From the IMG/VR virus record IMGVR_UViG_3300046460_000097: a stretch of 64,000 nucleotides of DNA; one strand, 5' to 3'. A program made the position numbers and the translations under genes. Under the pieces are notes generated by a model. It saw only the letters and a program-made list of their open reading frames with translations, was not told the origin of the DNA and searched no databases. Of this stretch, positions 6,943 through 64,000 are shown in pieces. The stretch comes from a virus (taxonomy: Duplodnaviria > Caudoviricetes). Each line of letters opens with the position of its first letter. Positions within the stretch are counted from its first letter, which is position 1.

Positions 6943-7446
6943 ATGCTGACTCCATCGCAAGAACTATTGGCTATTCTTCCTTACTACCCAATCGAGATTG
7001 ACAATCGGGTTTACTTCCCGACTCATGTTGGTCACCCAGCGGGTACCTTCCGAGTGGGTAAACTCGGCGACGCTGTATGGTACGTGGACATCCGTTCGCG
7101 TAAACCTTACTACCGTTCGTTGGCCGAACTGCAACATCGGGCGTTCCCTGTTGATCGTGAGAAGCTTCAGGAGGAACTGGACTTCCTAGCACGCGACGAG
7201 TACAAGGCGGTTCCTATTCACTTCCATGGTGAGTTGCATCCTGTGGTGTTGGTAACACGGGCTAGTCGTGGTGTGGTTGATGGGTTAACCAATCCTGAGA
7301 TCACCACCATCGGGGTGACTACCAAGGGTGTTCCTCTGGACGCTGCTGCGGGGTCTGTCAAGGTAGCTGCTGCATTGGTACAGAACAAGTGGTTCAAGGG
7401 ATTCCTCCGACTACCACTCATTTTGGAAGAAACTATTTATAAATAA
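6943..7446 (+). CDS. Hypothetical protein (early)
   Basis: 167-aa ORF, AAGGA RBS, downstream of early promoter. Confidence 0.75.
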   Translation: MLTPSQELLAILPYYPIEIDNRVYFPTHVGHPAGTFRVGKLGDAVWYVDIRSRKPYYRSLAELQHRAFPVDREKLQEELDFLARDEYKAVPIHFHGELHPVVLVTRASRGVVDGLTNPEITTIGVTTKGVPLDAAAGSVKVAAALVQNKWFKGFLRLPLILEETIYK

Positions 7447-7455
7447 GGGGGCGTC

Positions 7456-7722
7456 ATGGGCGAAGTAGTTCAATACGCTGAGATGGTTAAACGTCGTGCC
7501 AATAAACAAGGTGGGCGTGACTTTACTCCGGCAGCGGCGGTACGAAAAGAGAAACGACGCAATGAGATTACTGCACGGTTGAGAGAGATCAACAATGAAG
7601 TCGTGCAGCAAGAAGAAATCATTTACGTCGGGGGTACCGTTCTTCTGCGTGAAGGTGCTGCAATTAAACGGTTAGCTCTCCTGATGGAAGCAGCCAAGTT
7701 ACGCGATGAGTACATGGAGTAA
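7456..7722 (+). CDS. Hypothetical protein
   Basis: 88 aa, AGGGGG RBS, tightly packed. Confidence 0.7.
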   Translation: MGEVVQYAEMVKRRANKQGGRDFTPAAAVRKEKRRNEITARLREINNEVVQQEEIIYVGGTVLLREGAAIKRLALLMEAAKLRDEYME

Positions 7723-7724
7723 AC

Positions 7725-7937
7725 ATGGAAAACGATGAAGAAGTAAAACCACCACTGCGATTCAGTGCTTCTTGCGGTACGGGTTCAGCGCTAGCCGCTC
7801 TTTTGTTTCTGGTGTGCTGGGTTGTTGGCTGGGTATTGGCCAAGGGGTTCTGGAGCACCCTCATTTCGGTGTGTCTTCCTCCGTGGGGTTGGTACCTCAT
7901 CGTAGAGAAAATCATGTTGGCATACGGACTGGTCTAA
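7725..7937 (+). CDS. Small membrane protein (two hydrophobic segments)
   Basis: 70 aa, GGAG RBS; ALAALLFLVCWVVGWVLA and GFWSTLISVCLPPWGWYLIV. Confidence 0.75.
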   Translation: MENDEEVKPPLRFSASCGTGSALAALLFLVCWVVGWVLAKGFWSTLISVCLPPWGWYLIVEKIMLAYGLV

Positions 7938-7941
7938 CATT

Positions 7942-7966
7942 TTAGGGGAGGGGAGGCCTCCTCTAA
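7942..7966 (+). terminator. Stem-loop
   Basis: TTAGGGGAGG-5nt-CCTCCTCTAA. Confidence 0.5.
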
Positions 7967-7991
7967 TGCCAACTTGTATAGGGAACATGTA

Positions 7992-8276
7992 ATGCAATCA
8001 ACGATCGTTGAACAGGGCGTAGTCCCTACATCGAACAAAACTGTCATCCTTGGTAAAGTGCTTTTCAACGCAGCGCACGGGGAAGAAGAAGTTTATTCGG
8101 TTTACCACGAAGACGAAGGCCCAGCAAGTGGTGTGTTCTATATCACCCGGACCTGTGCCCGTATCGACTTCAACCTGGAAGTTGCAGGTGACGAAGATTA
8201 CGAGCGATTGTCTCGTGAAGCTGGCGGTTTGTGCGGTAAGACGTACAACGAAATGAAAGCGTTTCTTGAGCGGTAA
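7992..8276 (+). CDS. Hypothetical protein
   Basis: ATG at 7992 with AGGGA RBS; 94 aa. Confidence 0.7.
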   Translation: MQSTIVEQGVVPTSNKTVILGKVLFNAAHGEEEVYSVYHEDEGPASGVFYITRTCARIDFNLEVAGDEDYERLSREAGGLCGKTYNEMKAFLER

Positions 8277-8300
8277 ATAACGCGAATTAATTATAACCAC

Positions 8301-8337
8301 TAGGCCATCCTATCCCTACTCGGGATGGGATGGTTTA
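8301..8337 (+). terminator. Intrinsic terminator
   Basis: TAGGCCATCCTATCCC-TACTC-GGGATGGGATGGTTTA then TTT. Confidence 0.7.
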
Positions 8338-8400
8338 TTTAAGATACATTTGTTTTTGGGCCTATATTACTAGTAGGATAAAGGTAATCAATACCTTTCA
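8337..8400 (+). promoter_or_regulatory. Early promoter cassette copy 1 (TATATTAC at 8363-8370 plus 7-bp hairpin 8380-8398)
   Basis: 55/64 nt identical to 51705..51768 by manual alignment. Confidence 0.85.
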
Positions 8401-8422
8401 ATTGGTCTTCGAGGATACTGTT

Positions 8423-8848
8423 ATGGAAAGTAATAAACTGCAACCTCAGGTTCTGATCCGCAAGGGTGAGGAAGGTTTCGAACTCAACTATGGCAAACAA
8501 GTCATGGGTGAGTTGGATGGCATTAAGTTCTGTGCCGAGCAGTGGTACATGGAGCTGTTTCAGCTCCCGTACACTGTGGTGGAAGAAGTTCCGGTGTTCT
8601 TGCTGGACTTCCATGTGGACGTAGAGATGGGTAACGACCGGAAGATCTTCCATGCATTTGCAAAGGAAGACTTGCGACCTCTGGCCATCGCGTTCTCCAA
8701 GCTTAATGGCGGTCGTTGGGCTGGGGTTAGCCACAAGGTCCGTTGGCTGGAGACCTATCGTAACGGTCATGTGGAGAACGCTCATCAGACCATCGATGAG
8801 TTCTACCTCGACATGACTCCAGAGCAGATCGAACATTCCAAGTTCTGA
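8423..8848 (+). CDS. Hypothetical protein (early)
   Basis: ATG 8423 with GAGGA RBS; 141 aa. Confidence 0.75.
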   Translation: MESNKLQPQVLIRKGEEGFELNYGKQVMGELDGIKFCAEQWYMELFQLPYTVVEEVPVFLLDFHVDVEMGNDRKIFHAFAKEDLRPLAIAFSKLNGGRWAGVSHKVRWLETYRNGHVENAHQTIDEFYLDMTPEQIEHSKF

Positions 8849-8894
8849 TCTGCTTCTCCACCACAACACCCTCTCTTTGTACAAGGATACTGTT

Positions 8895-9194
8895 ATGAGC
8901 AATGAAGTTAACGTTACCGGTCGTCGTCGTGTTGTCGCTACCATGATGCGTGGTAAGAGTAAAGAAGTGATCATGGCGCGTCGCTATGCTTACTTCGATA
9001 CCGCTATGCCCAGGATGTTGCAACTGGCGATGACCTATTGTAACGAGGGCGATTTCATTGAGATCACCAGCGATGAATTTGGTTTTCAGCTGGGTGTTCT
9101 GCACGTCCGTAAGGGCGGTCGCTTCGAGGTGGACATGAGTCCATTGGTTAAATCCAGTCCATCCCTGCTCAAGCTCATGAGCGAAAAGGAGTAA
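8895..9194 (+). CDS. Hypothetical protein
   Basis: ATG 8895 with AAGGA RBS; 99 aa. Confidence 0.75.
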   Translation: MSNEVNVTGRRRVVATMMRGKSKEVIMARRYAYFDTAMPRMLQLAMTYCNEGDFIEITSDEFGFQLGVLHVRKGGRFEVDMSPLVKSSPSLLKLMSEKE

Positions 9195-9198
9195 CACC

Positions 9199-9465
9199 AT
9201 GGGTCAAGTTCTTCAGTTGTTCAACAACGACAAAGGTGCCAAGTACGTTCGGTCTCCTAAGGCAATCGCCTTGGCAGATAGGCTGAACCTGGGTCGCGCT
9301 ATCGAGACTCAACAGAACCTCGTGGATGTTTATTCCGACCTCGTGCATTCTTCGGTCGATCCTCGTGATTCTTTTGTTGCTCGTCAGTTTGCCAAAGAAG
9401 CACAGCTTGATCTCGATAAGCTGGTTGCTGAATACGCCGGCAAGTACGGTGTCCTGATACTGTAA
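9199..9465 (+). CDS. Hypothetical protein
   Basis: 88 aa, AAGGAG RBS. Confidence 0.75.
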   Translation: MGQVLQLFNNDKGAKYVRSPKAIALADRLNLGRAIETQQNLVDVYSDLVHSSVDPRDSFVARQFAKEAQLDLDKLVAEYAGKYGVLIL

Positions 9466-9475
9466 GGGGGTAAAG

Positions 9476-9796
9476 ATGTTCATCAGAATACTTAGTCCAA
9501 AGGAATACGAGGACAGTCTTCAGCGGATGGTCAGTACCTTAACGGAACTGGAGAGTGAAATTATTCTTCTGCGACGTAAGGCACGGACCATACACATCCT
9601 GGACATCTACAGTTACAAGACATACGCTCAGTTGAACGAAGCAGCCGATCGTCTTAGCGATTCTGCTAGAAAGCTGAATGAAGAAATCAGTCGCACGCAG
9701 AAACGTGGTTACATGTTAGCGTTCACTAAACCGGCGTGGGTAGACAAGTTTCAAGAGCTGGTTAGAAAACTTCCCGATACATTAAGAAACCGTTAG
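9476..9796 (+). CDS. Hypothetical coiled-coil protein
   Basis: 106 aa, AAGGGGG RBS. Confidence 0.7.
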   Translation: MFIRILSPKEYEDSLQRMVSTLTELESEIILLRRKARTIHILDIYSYKTYAQLNEAADRLSDSARKLNEEISRTQKRGYMLAFTKPAWVDKFQELVRKLPDTLRNR

Positions 9797-9809
9797 CAGG
9801 AGATTCACC

Positions 9810-10052
9810 ATGGACCGTACTACCATTCGTCAACAGATCAAGAAGCTGAACGAAGAAGCACAAACTTACAAAGGCTGCAAGCACCAAATCCTCTCCGCCG
9901 GTTATAACCTGCGAGTGGGCGTGTTCCGTAGTGCGGTGAATGTACGGGTGATGGACCAGATGAAAGCTGTCGGTCGTGCCCTCCGCGAAGAAGTCAAGAA
10001 ACTTCGCCAAGAAGAGACTGCCATTATCGGTAGCAACTCGGTAATGCTCTAA
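9810..10052 (+). CDS. Hypothetical coiled-coil protein
   Basis: 80 aa, AGGAG RBS. Confidence 0.75.
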   Translation: MDRTTIRQQIKKLNEEAQTYKGCKHQILSAGYNLRVGVFRSAVNVRVMDQMKAVGRALREEVKKLRQEETAIIGSNSVML

Positions 10053-10066
10053 ACTAAAGATTCCTT

Positions 10067-10103
10067 ATAACCCTCCTATCCCTTGATGGGGTAGGAGGGT
10101 TAT
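10067..10103. terminator. Bidirectional terminator (ATAACCC family)
   Basis: 16-bp stem ATAACCCTCCTATCCC-TTGAT-GGGGTAGGAGGGTTAT between convergent genes. Confidence 0.8.
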
Positions 10104-10125
10104 AGTTGTGGTTTCTTTTTTTGTC

Positions 10126-10959
10126 TCAGGAGAAACTATTATGTGTAACGACCCAGTCGTCTATGATGTACAAGCTGTCTTCGCTGTCAATGCTGATGCA
10201 AGCTGTTCCCATGGGTTTGAGTTGTTCAAAGGAAACAATCTTGAGTTTGACGTCTTCGTACAGACTCAAGTCAATGATAGAACCCAGGCTGTCACCCAGT
10301 AACCCGTCTACGAGCCCCACGATGTCCCTGTGCTTGAATTCAACCCGATACAGTGATTCATACGGGTCTAGCGTAGCGACGCCCCCAAGGCTCCACATGA
10401 GCTCCTTGAAGTTAGCAGCTCCTGTCTGGTTTTCCATCAGGACACTAACACCCCTCTCCGATATATGAACACTGGATAGTTCGATCATACGTTCTGCAAG
10501 TGCGTAGCGGTCTCCATATGAGAGTTCCATCACTGGGCTGTCTATAACTATACCAGATGAAACAAGAGAAGCCGCCAGCTGATGGAGGTCACGGTCGAGG
10601 CCCACCGTAGCTATGCTAGTCCCCCCTACCTCCCCCACTACCGGCAAGTAGTAACAGAACTGATCGAAGTGCCCGACAATATCTTGGGTGGTCGTAACGT
10701 ACCCCTGTGCACTCGGCTCGGCTTCGTGTACTTGCCAAAGATGTAGTGGGTGAGAATCAGCTGTGCGGCCATCCTCTAAGGTAAACCGAAAGCATTCAGT
10801 AACACCCTGAGGGAAACAGTTAGTGATGTTCGCTACGTTCCCCTTAGGCCCGATCACTTGGTCGCCTATCTTAAGGTCGCCAAGTCTTGTCCAGCCCCCT
10901 GGTGTCTTTACCAGGGTATGAAGTGGCATAGCTTTGCCACTAGCGAAGATGTTTACCAT
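10126..10959 (-). CDS. Free-standing intein (Hint) protein, class 3 signature, decayed LAGLIDADG, 9-aa N-extein and 3-aa C-extein
   Basis: ATG 10959 with AAGGA RBS; MVNIFASGK|AMPLHTLVKTPGGW..LGDLKIGDQV (block A), HLW (block B), CISIDSEDSLY (block F), VVTHN|SFS-stop (block G); intein 10138..10932, 265 aa. Confidence 0.88.
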   Translation of the reverse strand: MVNIFASGKAMPLHTLVKTPGGWTRLGDLKIGDQVIGPKGNVANITNCFPQGVTECFRFTLEDGRTADSHPLHLWQVHEAEPSAQGYVTTTQDIVGHFDQFCYYLPVVGEVGGTSIATVGLDRDLHQLAASLVSSGIVIDSPVMELSYGDRYALAERMIELSSVHISERGVSVLMENQTGAANFKELMWSLGGVATLDPYESLYRVEFKHRDIVGLVDGLLGDSLGSIIDLSLYEDVKLKIVSFEQLKPMGTACISIDSEDSLYIIDDWVVTHNSFS

Positions 10960-10988
10960 AAACCTTGTCCTTAAAAGGGAAACCAATA

Positions 10989-12182
10989 ATGTTCAAATTG
11001 TGGACAGTGGCAGAAGCAGAAGCACGCGGTAAAACCTTGTCGGATGACGCGTTCAACGAAATCAATGCACTGCGGAATTTCTTCTACCGCATGTACCCGG
11101 AGTTTGGCTTTGGTCACATGCCAGACATCTATACCTACCAAGGGTTGGCTGACACTGTCGAAGTCAAGTTCATTCGTTTTGAATGGGCTGGCAAGTCTTA
11201 CACCTTCGTTATCCAGGACTCTCTGTACGATTACTTCATTACCAGTTGGGAAGATGAGAGCCCGCATAAAGAGTGGTGTGACCGTCCTAACCAGTGCGTC
11301 GAGATGGTTCGTAAGCACTGGAAGCGCACTGTCACCAAGATGCCTATAGAGTTGCCTATGGACATCCTCACCAGCGTCCAGAATCAGGTCTACGGCTGGG
11401 AACACTTGACCGATGGTGACTTCACTCAGGTTTACTCTGTATGCGCCCGTATGGCCGCTGAGATGCGTGAGAAGTGTGCGTACGTTACACACCTCGCCGA
11501 CAAGCTGGGTCACATCATCAAGCAGAAAGACCACGACCTGTACCTGAGCTTCAAGGGTGTCGACTTCTTCCAGAAAATGAACATCGGTCTAGACCGTGTT
11601 TATCCGAAACTGCCTGAAAGTGGTGAAGTGTCTCTGGGTGATTCGGTCATCGATCTCGACGACTGGTACATGTACAACAAGATCGTCCAGGTCAACGTCA
11701 AACGTATCGGCCATGCGTCGAACCAGATCAACCGCATGATCAAGCGTTACCGCGGAATGATCTCCACCGACGTAGTCATCCAAGACATCTTCGATGCTGA
11801 ACTGAAGATCCAGTTGATGGCAGCCAGTCACTTCCTCAAGCGCATCTACGGCTACAGCGCTGAGCACGGTATGGAAATCATGGAAGGCGTCGCCAACGAC
11901 GTTATCGCTCGTCTGACCAAGCACGGTGGCAACATCGGTCTCGACTTGAACGAGTGGGTGGTTTACCAGTACCACGACGACAACTCGATGCCAACAGCTA
12001 TCAACGACGTTGCCGAGCTGGACTTCAAGAACGGACTGTACAACCGCTACACCCAGTCCTTCGTAGAAGCGCTGTACGCGTATCTGCTGGACACTCCGAA
12101 CCCGTACATCAAACCTTATACTTGGCGTCAAGTAGTAGAAGGTGATGACGGTATCGCGATTGGTTCTATCCGTCAGGTGTAA
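10989..12182 (+). CDS. Hypothetical protein
   Basis: 397 aa from ATG 10989 (AAGGG RBS), codon usage like well-expressed phage genes; no recognised motif. Confidence 0.8.
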   Translation: MFKLWTVAEAEARGKTLSDDAFNEINALRNFFYRMYPEFGFGHMPDIYTYQGLADTVEVKFIRFEWAGKSYTFVIQDSLYDYFITSWEDESPHKEWCDRPNQCVEMVRKHWKRTVTKMPIELPMDILTSVQNQVYGWEHLTDGDFTQVYSVCARMAAEMREKCAYVTHLADKLGHIIKQKDHDLYLSFKGVDFFQKMNIGLDRVYPKLPESGEVSLGDSVIDLDDWYMYNKIVQVNVKRIGHASNQINRMIKRYRGMISTDVVIQDIFDAELKIQLMAASHFLKRIYGYSAEHGMEIMEGVANDVIARLTKHGGNIGLDLNEWVVYQYHDDNSMPTAINDVAELDFKNGLYNRYTQSFVEALYAYLLDTPNPYIKPYTWRQVVEGDDGIAIGSIRQV

Positions 12183-63302: not shown

Positions 63303-64000
63303 ATGTCGGAAACCACTGAGATTCCCAATCTCAAGTTTGCTAAGGATCTGGTCAATTACCTCGGCTGTCAGAACCTCCCTAAGGAACTGATTGACGATCG
63401 TAAGAAACGGGTCGATTGGGAAAAGCGTACCGAAGATGAGCTGACCATGGCTCACTTCAATGAAGATAGTTTGTTCAAGATCAAGACGGTTCGTTTCCTC
63501 AAGGACTTCGCGCGTTACAAAGCGGCTCCTGATCTGAAGACCACCAACACCAGCTTTCTGCGTACCGCTGAGATCTTCCGTCAGCAAGGGATTAAGAACT
63601 ATTACTTCCTGCTGCAACTGAACAACCCGGCACTGGTGGGTGTGGATCCGTATGACGAGAACCTGACCCATGACCAGAAGCTGATGGTCATGCACGAATG
63701 CGAGACCAACTTCTGGTACTTCCTTCGTGAGGTGTGCAAGCTGCGACCTGATCGTCAGTTCTTGGCTAACCGGGGTAACATCAGTTTCATCTGGAGTTAC
63801 CTGAACCACATCACCACGTACATGATCATGCCTCGTCAACAGGGCAAGTATCAGGATGACAACAACAAGGTCCGGATTAAGCCTAAGGGTCGTGCTGATA
63901 CACCGGATGACATGTGGGCAAAGATTGGCAGCCTGCAGTTGGGTGATGAAGTTATCGACCGTTACGGCAATGTGTGTAACGTGATCGGTGTACACCCTCA
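63303..64000 (+). CDS. terL: Terminase large subunit (phiKZ gp25-like), 5' part, intein-containing
   Basis: Not in ORF track (runs off edge). ATG 63303; TTNTSF, GIKNYYF, GVDPYD, EC.TNFWYFLRE, Walker A MPRQQGK. Confidence 0.9.
   Translation, partial: MSETTEIPNLKFAKDLVNYLGCQNLPKELIDDRKKRVDWEKRTEDELTMAHFNEDSLFKIKTVRFLKDFARYKAAPDLKTTNTSFLRTAEIFRQQGIKNYYFLLQLNNPALVGVDPYDENLTHDQKLMVMHECETNFWYFLREVCKLRPDRQFLANRGNISFIWSYLNHITTYMIMPRQQGKYQDDNNKVRIKPKGRADTPDDMWAKIGSLQLGDEVIDRYGNVCNVIGVHP
63849..64000 (+). mobile_element. Intein N-terminal region inserted in terminase Walker A (truncated by window)
   Basis: After RQQGK: YQDDNNKVRI...WAKIGSLQLGDEVIDRYGNVCNVIGVHP, the Hint N-terminal W..IG.L..GD.V...G pattern. 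Confidence 0.85.

Follow-up and report, generated by a model that had tools for sequence, protein, structure and literature searches.

A stand-alone descendant of a class 3 helicase intein, recurrently generated and selectively maintained in EL-like jumbo phages

We analyzed an open reading frame (ORF) located on the minus strand of a 64,000-nt stretch of phage DNA, hereafter the window, from the IMG/VR record IMGVR_UViG_3300046460_000097 (Duplodnaviria; Caudoviricetes). The ORF extends from an ATG at position 10959 to a TGA at 10126–10128 and codes for a product of 277 aa, which consists of a 9-residue leader ending in Gly-Lys, a 265-residue class 3 intein (Ala10 to Asn274) and a Ser-Phe-Ser tail; the exteins are thus limited to 9 and 3 residues, as had been read in a preliminary description made from the sequence alone. 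The comparisons presented here show that this ORF is the intein of a SNF2-type helicase, homologous to gp166 of Pseudomonas phage EL, that outlived its host gene. It is a recurrently generated and selectively maintained stand-alone descendant of a class 3 helicase intein, found in EL-like jumbo phages. We consider it probable that the product is a stand-alone intein protein, repeatedly exapted and kept by selection for a job that would not need the ligation of exteins.

Results

The ORF occupies the place of a lost helicase gene

A megablast search with the locus gave no match among GenBank phages, and tblastx comparisons identified the window phage as an EL-like jumbo phage, with 50–75% protein identity in the structural genes. 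The best GenBank phage match of the ORF product was the interior of EL gp166 (41% identity, 98% coverage), a 940-aa SNF2-type helicase annotated as "DarB-like" or "DNA helicase". The intein of gp166 sits in the Walker A loop, with junctions GSGK/AMPL...VTHN/TFT (slashes mark the limits of the intein). By tblastx synteny, the ORF corresponds in position to gp166, with the homologues of gp167–gp169 (gp168 being a DUF7194 protein) on one side and a series of small plus-strand genes on the other. The gp166 slot contains a full helicase of 940–950 aa with its intein in eight metagenomic or cultured relatives (L010–L014, L016, L017 and L019), and an intein-free helicase of 681 aa, reading GSGK/TF, in another relative (P0165, locus L029). 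Three states of the locus are thus known: a helicase without intein, a helicase with it, and a free-standing intein.

The free-standing ORFs reuse the upstream region of the helicase gene, its ATG and its first 4–18 codons: they start with MxNL(FS), and the helicases start with MFNLFSV and read GSGK before the intein. The synteny with gp166, the helicase start codon and first codons, and the P-loop remnant that brackets the intein (GK/.../S) together indicate an origin from the helicase gene. This agrees with one of the options of the preliminary description, that the ORF is the last relic of an eroded ATPase or helicase gene, and the comparison with EL-like phages that it proposed reveals the intein-bearing helicase, EL gp166, in the same slot. 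The most direct view of the process is offered by locus L020, whose DNA is 82–90% identical to the helicase locus L016 save for two deletions. One starts near codon 19 and stops six codons short of the intein; the other starts at codon +2 and leaves the final four codons of the helicase. The +1 Thr is retained, and gp165 comes next, as in L016. Two simple deletions in a helicase gene like that of L016 account for this locus. In the window lineage, two in-frame deletions removed around 140 codons of the N-extein and around 520 codons of the C-extein, also taking the downstream gp165 up to a shared terminator, and the retained ribosome binding site (RBS), ATG and first codons of the helicase gene would keep the intein translated.

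Whether the helicase is missing from whole genomes was examined in relatives. Six-frame searches with the N- and C-exteins of EL found neither in G002 and G003, free-form genomes that are 96% and 100% complete, respectively, nor in the half-genome records G001 and G004, which are the closest to the window; as a positive control, genome G005 was matched at E values of 1e-73 and 1e-212. The claim that the host gene is essentially absent is therefore borne out in these genomes.

Gene gp165 (330–360 aa) is encoded right after the helicase (coordinates 12421–13419 in L016, 12400–13455 in L014, 1859–2275 in L020, and 10865–11944 in L025). Two free-form loci, L020 and L025, retain it, and in most others it disappeared along with the exteins. 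Since the neighborhood of the intein-free helicase of L029 lacks it too, gp165 is not strictly tied to the helicase.

The product is intein-derived and conserves a class 3 splicing center

Scans of the window protein against Pfam and NCBIfam matched no family, and its identification relies on PHROGs, a sequence search of the PDB, its homologues and its fold. The PHROG matches were to families with intein-bearing terminases, primases and helicase loaders, and phmmer retrieved from the PDB the gp41-1 intein (6riz; E value 6e-9) and class 3 DnaB inteins (E values of around 1e-6 to 2e-6). The search with hidden Markov models (HMMs) suggested in the preliminary description hence failed with the window protein itself and succeeded with its relatives, which match the curated models Hom_end_hint and Intein_splicing, as well as LAGLIDADG_3 in eight of them.

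In the alignment to 6riz, a class 3-like variant of gp41-1, Trp75 falls on W65 and Cys254 on C107, both of which are engineered positions, and VVTHN pairs with ILTHN. The window copy contains Ala10, His73 (B10), Trp75 (B12), Cys254 (F4), Thr272 (G5), His273, Asn274 and Ser275 (+1), that is, the class 3 signature (a non-nucleophilic residue 1 together with Trp B12, Cys F4 and Thr G5) plus the accessory residues of the class (His B10, a C-terminal His-Asn and a +1 Ser). The Trp/Cys/Thr signature proposed earlier is thus confirmed, both by 6riz and by alignment to 20 host-embedded relatives and, with every class 3 residue in place, the splicing center appears to be intact, as had also been claimed. 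An AlphaFold2 model built on an alignment of 33 sequences (predicted local distance difference test, pLDDT, 90.2; predicted template modeling score, pTM, 0.88) superposed on PI-SceI with a template modeling (TM) score of 0.72 over the query, and on class 3 mini-inteins with TM scores of around 0.8 over the target; it also resembled, weakly, the solved structures of the bacterial intein-like (BIL) domain BIL2 (6y75) and of Hedgehog (1at0). Sequence and predicted structure hence both give the Hint fold expected of an intein, whereas an intein in the strict sense is an in-frame insert that ligates two host parts, and here only 9 + 3 flanking residues exist; the ORF is better described as an intein-derived gene. 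Its layout, together with that of its immediate surroundings, is as follows.

10126–10959, minus strand: whole free-standing ORF (leader, class 3 intein and tail), 277 codons plus TGA; a 98% identical copy occurs in L006, L007 and L009
10933–10959, minus strand: 9-codon leader MVNIFASGK, the first ~5 helicase codons joined to the 4 that immediately preceded the Walker A splice site
10138–10932, minus strand: intein proper, Ala10 to Asn274, 265 aa; 41% identity to the EL gp166 intein and 60–62% to the inteins of six closer helicases
10660–10932, minus strand: N-terminal Hint part, residues 10–100 (Ala10, 10930–10932; His73, 10741–10743; Trp75, 10735–10737)
10294–10659, minus strand: central, nuclease-dead LAGLIDADG half-domain, residues 101–222, from alignment and model; net charge −8
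10138–10293, minus strand: C-terminal Hint part, residues 223–274 (Cys254, 10198–10200; Thr272-His273-Asn274, 10138–10146)
10129–10137, minus strand: 3-codon tail SFS, remnant of the start of the C-extein (TFT in EL); Ser275 is the +1 nucleophile
10968–10972, minus strand: RBS AAGGA, retained from the helicase gene and located 9 nt before the ATG
10065–10105, no strand assigned: 18-bp hairpin between convergent genes (−28.7 kcal/mol, z −5)
10990–12182, plus strand: divergent neighbor, homologue of EL gp167, left edge of the old helicase locus

Codon 251 (window position 10208), situated just before block F (E-T-x-C), codes for Gly in the window and for Glu in almost all relatives. Contigs from two other samples carry the Glu251 allele, and Gly251 is thus a variant allele in the population.

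An alternative TTG start at 10986 would lengthen the ORF by 9 residues. Nevertheless, ATG 10959 is likely the true start, because all homologues begin at the methionine of the M-x-N-L motif and AAGGA is found 9 nt upstream. The motif TAAGGAC also precedes the start of EL gp166 and the free ORFs of L008, L018, L021 and L024. The ORF thus has the RBS and stop codon of its own that were first attributed to it.

The central domain is a probable dead LAGLIDADG half-domain in an acidic protein

The central ~120 residues appear to correspond to a single LAGLIDADG half-domain plus the first motif helix; in the model, which overlaps PI-SceI, they form two LAGLIDADG-type helices and one alpha-beta-beta-alpha-beta-beta-alpha unit. 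Where relatives read GLLDxDG, the window protein reads LAASLVSSG and ERMIELSS, so that both catalytic acids have been lost and replaced by Ser, and the homing nuclease has decayed as previously noticed. The motif GLLDxDG is retained in distant relatives and, unlike the eight relatives mentioned above, the window protein does not match LAGLIDADG_3. With its catalytic acids missing, it should not be classed as an active homing endonuclease. The protein is also acidic (pI 4.7, net charge −18), as is its family (pI 4.7–5.9), and neutral to basic proteins prevail among the relatives in which the LAGLIDADG motif survives. DNA cleavage or DNA binding by the window protein is thus unlikely, given its charge and the loss of the LAGLIDADG acids; since the family is acidic, less weight was given to the possibility that the protein took over DNA binding from the homing nuclease.

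Some actinophage inteins contain a hidden antisense or out-of-frame nuclease gene. Such a gene was considered here, and the plus-strand ORFs that overlap the intein region are short (≤120 aa) and unconserved.

Free-standing copies arose repeatedly in the helicase slot

Free-standing homologues (P0003–P0010, P0012–P0014 and P0082), retrieved by protein searches that were either restricted by length or exhaustive, are 248–309 aa long with identities of 28–98%, and every one of them with a readable context occupies the helicase slot. At least 13 sequenced, diverged relatives carry an intact extein-less gene in that slot, which answers in the affirmative whether such a copy is conserved at this locus. 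The 98% identical copies of three other assemblies (L006, L007 and L009) are in the same context, and contigs obtained in other studies of soil and rhizosphere, 15.5 kb and 126 kb in length, span positions 9800–11300 with substitutions only and no indels. These independent contigs bridge both junctions and rule out an assembly break. The preliminary description would have given way to relatives with a full-length ATPase at this place if the copy were also an assembly break or a recent, neutral truncation; the full-length ATPase does exist in relatives, but neither an assembly break nor neutrality was found.

A phylogeny of 40 inteins, in which helicase inteins of greater divergence served as the root, grouped the EL-type inteins in a clade with support of 100/99, whose host-embedded members (EL, L013, L014 and a clade of six phages) are scattered among free forms. 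The window intein is sister to the six-phage helicase clade (99/95), the free form P0004 is nested within that clade (99/91) and the free form P0008 is sister to L013 (99/83). Monophyly of the free forms was rejected, at a cost of 109 log-likelihood units (approximately unbiased, AU, test, p 4e-5). A tree of the flanking structural proteins gp169 and gp168, which does not depend on the intein, likewise placed the window as sister to the six helicase phages (100/99) and rejected monophyly of the free forms (AU test, p 5e-6). The window lineage thus appears to have diverged recently from its sister group, in which the helicase is present. Six separate extein losses follow from the topology of the intein tree, provided that exteins cannot be regained. 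The limits of the deletions vary as well: leaders among the free forms are of 9, 13, 14, 16–17, 19, 24 or 26 residues, tails end at differing codons, and gp165 was either kept or lost. From these sequences, at least three independent origins of the free form appear secure (L020, L023 and the rest), and five or six are likely.

The free copies are under purifying selection

We compared ratios of non-synonymous to synonymous substitution rates (dN/dS) among free copies, embedded inteins and other genes of these phages. Free copies that share one deletion (L018, L021 and L024) gave dN/dS values of 0.07–0.11 at dS 0.5–1.1, the free pair L015 and L025 gave 0.094, and the window and L009, separated by 9 synonymous and 5 non-synonymous substitutions, gave 0.16. 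For comparison, the values were 0.06–0.14 for embedded inteins, 0.06–0.08 for helicase exteins, 0.06–0.14 for the virion protein gp169 and 0.15–0.19 for gp167, showing that the free copies are under purifying selection as strong as that on virion genes. Within the population of the window phage, the ORF contains 18 single-nucleotide polymorphisms (SNPs), 12 synonymous and 6 non-synonymous, and no indel (binomial p 1e-4).

The constraint is not confined to the splicing domain, since in free pairs with dS ≥0.5 the N-Hint, central and C-Hint parts all show dN/dS values of 0.03–0.12; among free-free pairs the ranges are 0.04–0.12 for the N-Hint part and 0.08–0.12 for the central domain. The comparison of catalytic and nuclease segments called for in the preliminary description thus finds all three regions constrained. 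The dead nuclease domain is also constrained within helicase-embedded inteins (0.08–0.18). The persistence of purifying selection indicates that the body formed by Hint and dead LAGLIDADG is a working phage protein and not a decaying relic. The proposal of a domesticated Hint protein fits the present state of a conserved and recurrent gene with a dN/dS of around 0.1.

It is accordingly highly unlikely that the ORF is a neutral relic, a functionless pseudogene remnant of the dead helicase gene that has not yet been erased. There is a published precedent in Arth_1007, an inactive class 3 intein with only 66 extein residues (PMC3196547); moreover, the window lineage is young, being sister to helicase-bearing phages. 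Nevertheless, a neutral remnant would not be expected to show the low ratios seen over dS 0.5–1.1 among copies that already share the deletion, intact frames in at least 13 diverged free copies, a twofold excess of synonymous SNPs without indels in the window phage population, or repeated in-frame retention with the start codon kept. Besides, Arth_1007 had lost His B10 and Cys F4, both of which are present in the window copy.

In a comparison drawn from loci L010–L019, L021 and L025, the dS of the intein exceeded the values that the exteins and gp169 gave for each phage pair (1.13 versus 0.34 for L018–L021, and 1.01 versus 0.68 for L016–L010). This hints at a separate history of the intein, by exchange between phages, or else at different codon constraints.

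Such a higher dS, seen in several pairs, is what would be expected of mobility, and raises the question of whether the free intein is a selfish, stand-alone homing element comparable to yeast WHO, spreading between co-infecting phages by, for instance, attacking intein-free helicase alleles, in which case selection would act at the level of the gene and not through any advantage for the phage. The occurrence of the three locus states in related phages (intein-free in P0165/L029), the patchy distribution over the phage tree and the existence of extein-less, intein-like nucleases in HO/WHO (PMC7282813) are all compatible with it. However, the window copy, like most members of the clade, has lost the catalytic acids of both LAGLIDADG motifs, and the protein is acidic, unlike its basic, motif-keeping relatives. 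Furthermore, free forms are always in the helicase slot with helicase-derived leaders, implying deletion in place and not insertion, and their genomes lack the target gene. We therefore consider a selfish element unlikely.

Residues for N-terminal cleavage persist and those for ligation decay

All 20 host-embedded members conserve Lys −1, His B10, Trp B12, Cys F4, Thr-His-Asn and a +1 Ser or Thr. In the free forms, position −1, formerly the Walker Lys, is variable (K, N, Q, L, E or R), and the C-terminal Asn or the +1 nucleophile was lost in five of nine sublineages, in which the broken junctions consist of Thr-Arg-stop ends, a +1 Leu or Gly, or a change of Asn to Ser. This loss indicates that selection does not act on the ligation of exteins. 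His B10, Trp B12, Cys F4 and Thr G5 were kept in eight of the nine sublineages; P0082 alone lost the four residues together, and even so has remained intact in the slot, with 270 aa. From these patterns, the N-terminal cleavage center may be selected, and the fold is, as judged from the sequences, certainly under selection.

The contrast between a kept N-terminal cleavage center (Gly −2, Ala1, His B10, Trp B12 and Cys F4 in eight of nine free sublineages) and a decaying C-terminal junction would also suit a processing device, in which the leader is released or transferred through a Cys254 thioester in the manner of BIL or Hedgehog domains, or in which the protein acts in trans with other inteins of the phage, such as those of the terminase and of a second helicase. 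Solved BIL domains weakly resemble the fold, and this phage type has at least two more inteins. Leaders, however, vary from 9 to 26 residues and their sequence is unconserved, which implies that there is no conserved peptide cargo, and the earlier suggestion of a peptide-generating device falls on the same ground. Nor is there any pointer to a trans-acting partner of the terminase intein, another of the early options, given that the other inteins of the phage type are complete, full length and with their own catalytic residues. Lastly, P0082 persists as an intact gene without any of the catalytic residues, and a processing device is in our opinion scarcely probable.

Genomic context and other inteins

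The divergent gene at the left edge of the locus codes for 397 aa and starts just 30 bp from the intein ORF. At the other end, the ORF had been described as followed by a terminator; the hairpin at 10065–10105 is present, but it is not exclusive to the ORF, as it carries its T-run on the plus strand and serves the convergent genes. It is mainly the terminator of the convergent plus-strand genes, shared with the intein ORF. In helicase-bearing relatives this terminator is located after gp165, and in the window directly after the intein ORF. The convergent genes (6943–10052, plus strand) are a run of around nine small genes of 70–170 aa between a tail-fiber/lipase block and the intein ORF, with almost no similarity to their positional EL counterparts gp159–gp164, and appear to be a fast-evolving accessory region.

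Two further ORFs contain intein or intein-like sequences. A terminase-like ORF (63303–63998, plus strand), which runs off the end of the window, shows a Walker A motif (…PRQQGK) followed directly by an intein-like insert that begins with Tyr instead of Cys or Ser and has a Hint block A; it is alike to the helicase intein over only 28 residues, and may be a second class 3-type intein. Additionally, locus L002 (1078–3372) of G001, the nearest relative of the window phage, codes for a second helicase, a 764-aa DExH protein; its intein, complete and belonging to the same family (30% identity), has the junctions GYGK/A…THN/T and a better preserved LAGLIDADG motif (GLMDNGG). Since a second helicase carries one, several related class 3 inteins are located in the P-loops of different ATPases in these phages.

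Discussion

Our results identify a helicase intein that survived the deletion of its host gene, and are best explained by its exaptation as a stand-alone protein. Several points weigh against this explanation or restrict it. The evidence of selection in the window lineage itself rests on few substitutions (9:5 against L009, and 12:6 among SNPs), and dS values above ~1 are near saturation. The count of origins assumes that exteins cannot be regained, and recombination during co-infection could obscure the signal of both trees. If it reshuffled them, one old C-side deletion could be common to the window, L008, the L018 group and L023, whose 3' junctions are similar and end at the terminator, and among which synonymous divergence is saturated. 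The conservation of His, Trp and Cys may reflect stability of the fold and not catalysis. Finally, expression of the ORF is predicted from sequence signals, and the obvious inherited activities, DNA cleavage and DNA binding, are precisely those considered unlikely.

With these points in mind, we infer the following self-processing and cellular role for the free protein. The short precursor would fold, and Cys254 would then attack the Lys9-Ala10 bond with the aid of His73 and Trp75, stripping the leader; in the young window copy, Asn274 and Ser275 could also finish splicing, releasing a 12-mer as a by-product. The freed, acidic Hint/LAGLIDADG body of ~30 kDa would act alone, more likely through protein contacts than by cleaving or binding DNA. 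The central domain is constrained in embedded copies too, which suggests that the job of the intein body may predate the loss of the helicase. A possible, although tentative, extension is that the intein is a phage gene nested within the helicase gene, which would already have a host-independent job while embedded; the helicase would then be dispensable and the intein indispensable, and its thioester center would serve for self-activation by leader removal, or for conjugation, in a new effector. If true, this effector could be an acidic, protein-binding anti-defense or regulatory factor.

Class 3 inteins are known from DnaB of mycobacteriophage Bethlehem, Snf2 of Deinococcus, and MchDnaB-1 (PMC2807308, PMC7664689). 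The window copy shares with them, and with the EL gp166 intein, Ala1, the Trp/Cys/Thr signature, the terminal His-Asn and a +1 Ser or Thr; with the gp166 intein it further shares homology over its whole length (41%, and 60–62% with closer helicases) and insertion after the Walker A Lys. It differs in having no host protein, and its sister free lineages lose the Asn or the +1 nucleophile. The closest case is Arth_1007 of Arsp-FB24, a class 3-type intein of phage origin that retains 52 + 14 extein residues after loss of the host gene (Tori and Perler, 2011; PMC3196547). It was described as a lone, decaying copy, inactive and without His B10 and Cys F4, and its authors reasoned that the death of the extein puts an end to selection (PMC3196547). 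Both are class 3-type, phage-derived inteins left with tiny exteins, whereas the present family keeps His B10 and Cys F4, is under purifying selection, occurs in many phages and arose repeatedly.

Yeast HO and WHO are independently expressed, extein-less, intein-derived nucleases with a zinc finger, in which motif G is dispensable (Coughlan et al., 2020; PMC7282813). They show that the body of an intein can be retained to do something other than splicing, as is probable here; the window family combines its own predicted expression signals with the absence of exteins and with selection at dN/dS 0.07–0.16. It is otherwise unlike them: HO/WHO are active LAGLIDADG nucleases, eukaryotic, zinc finger-bearing and of a single origin, and the window family is nuclease-dead, acidic and without catalytic acids, zinc finger or any other added domain, with several origins by deletion of the host gene. 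It is not a homology-based member of HO/WHO, its origin being independent. The Hint domains of BIL and Hedgehog proteins also use this fold for N-terminal cleavage or transfer without extein ligation, and their structural likeness is weak; they differ in being domains of larger proteins with a defined cargo, and have neither descent from a class 3 helicase intein nor a LAGLIDADG remnant. Literature searches for stand-alone, orphan or extein-less inteins found no paper describing such a class; outside yeast HO/WHO, they turned up no domesticated stand-alone intein protein, and none in phages, of class 3, nuclease-dead or of recurrent origin.

The free copies constitute a natural mutagenesis series that reveals which splicing residues matter once ligation is unneeded. 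In addition, a compact class 3 Hint protein with flanks of 9 and 3 residues is a candidate for a self-cleaving tag.

Inteins are usually seen as molecular parasites that persist because their imprecise removal would kill an essential host protein and, according to theory and to the single published case, Arth_1007, an intein decays once its host gene dies. The family of the window has repeatedly gone in the opposite direction: the helicase was deleted on both sides, and the intein stays in frame with the former start codon and evolves like a normal essential gene. The existence of three natural alleles at a single locus makes the question of whether inteins benefit their carriers directly testable.

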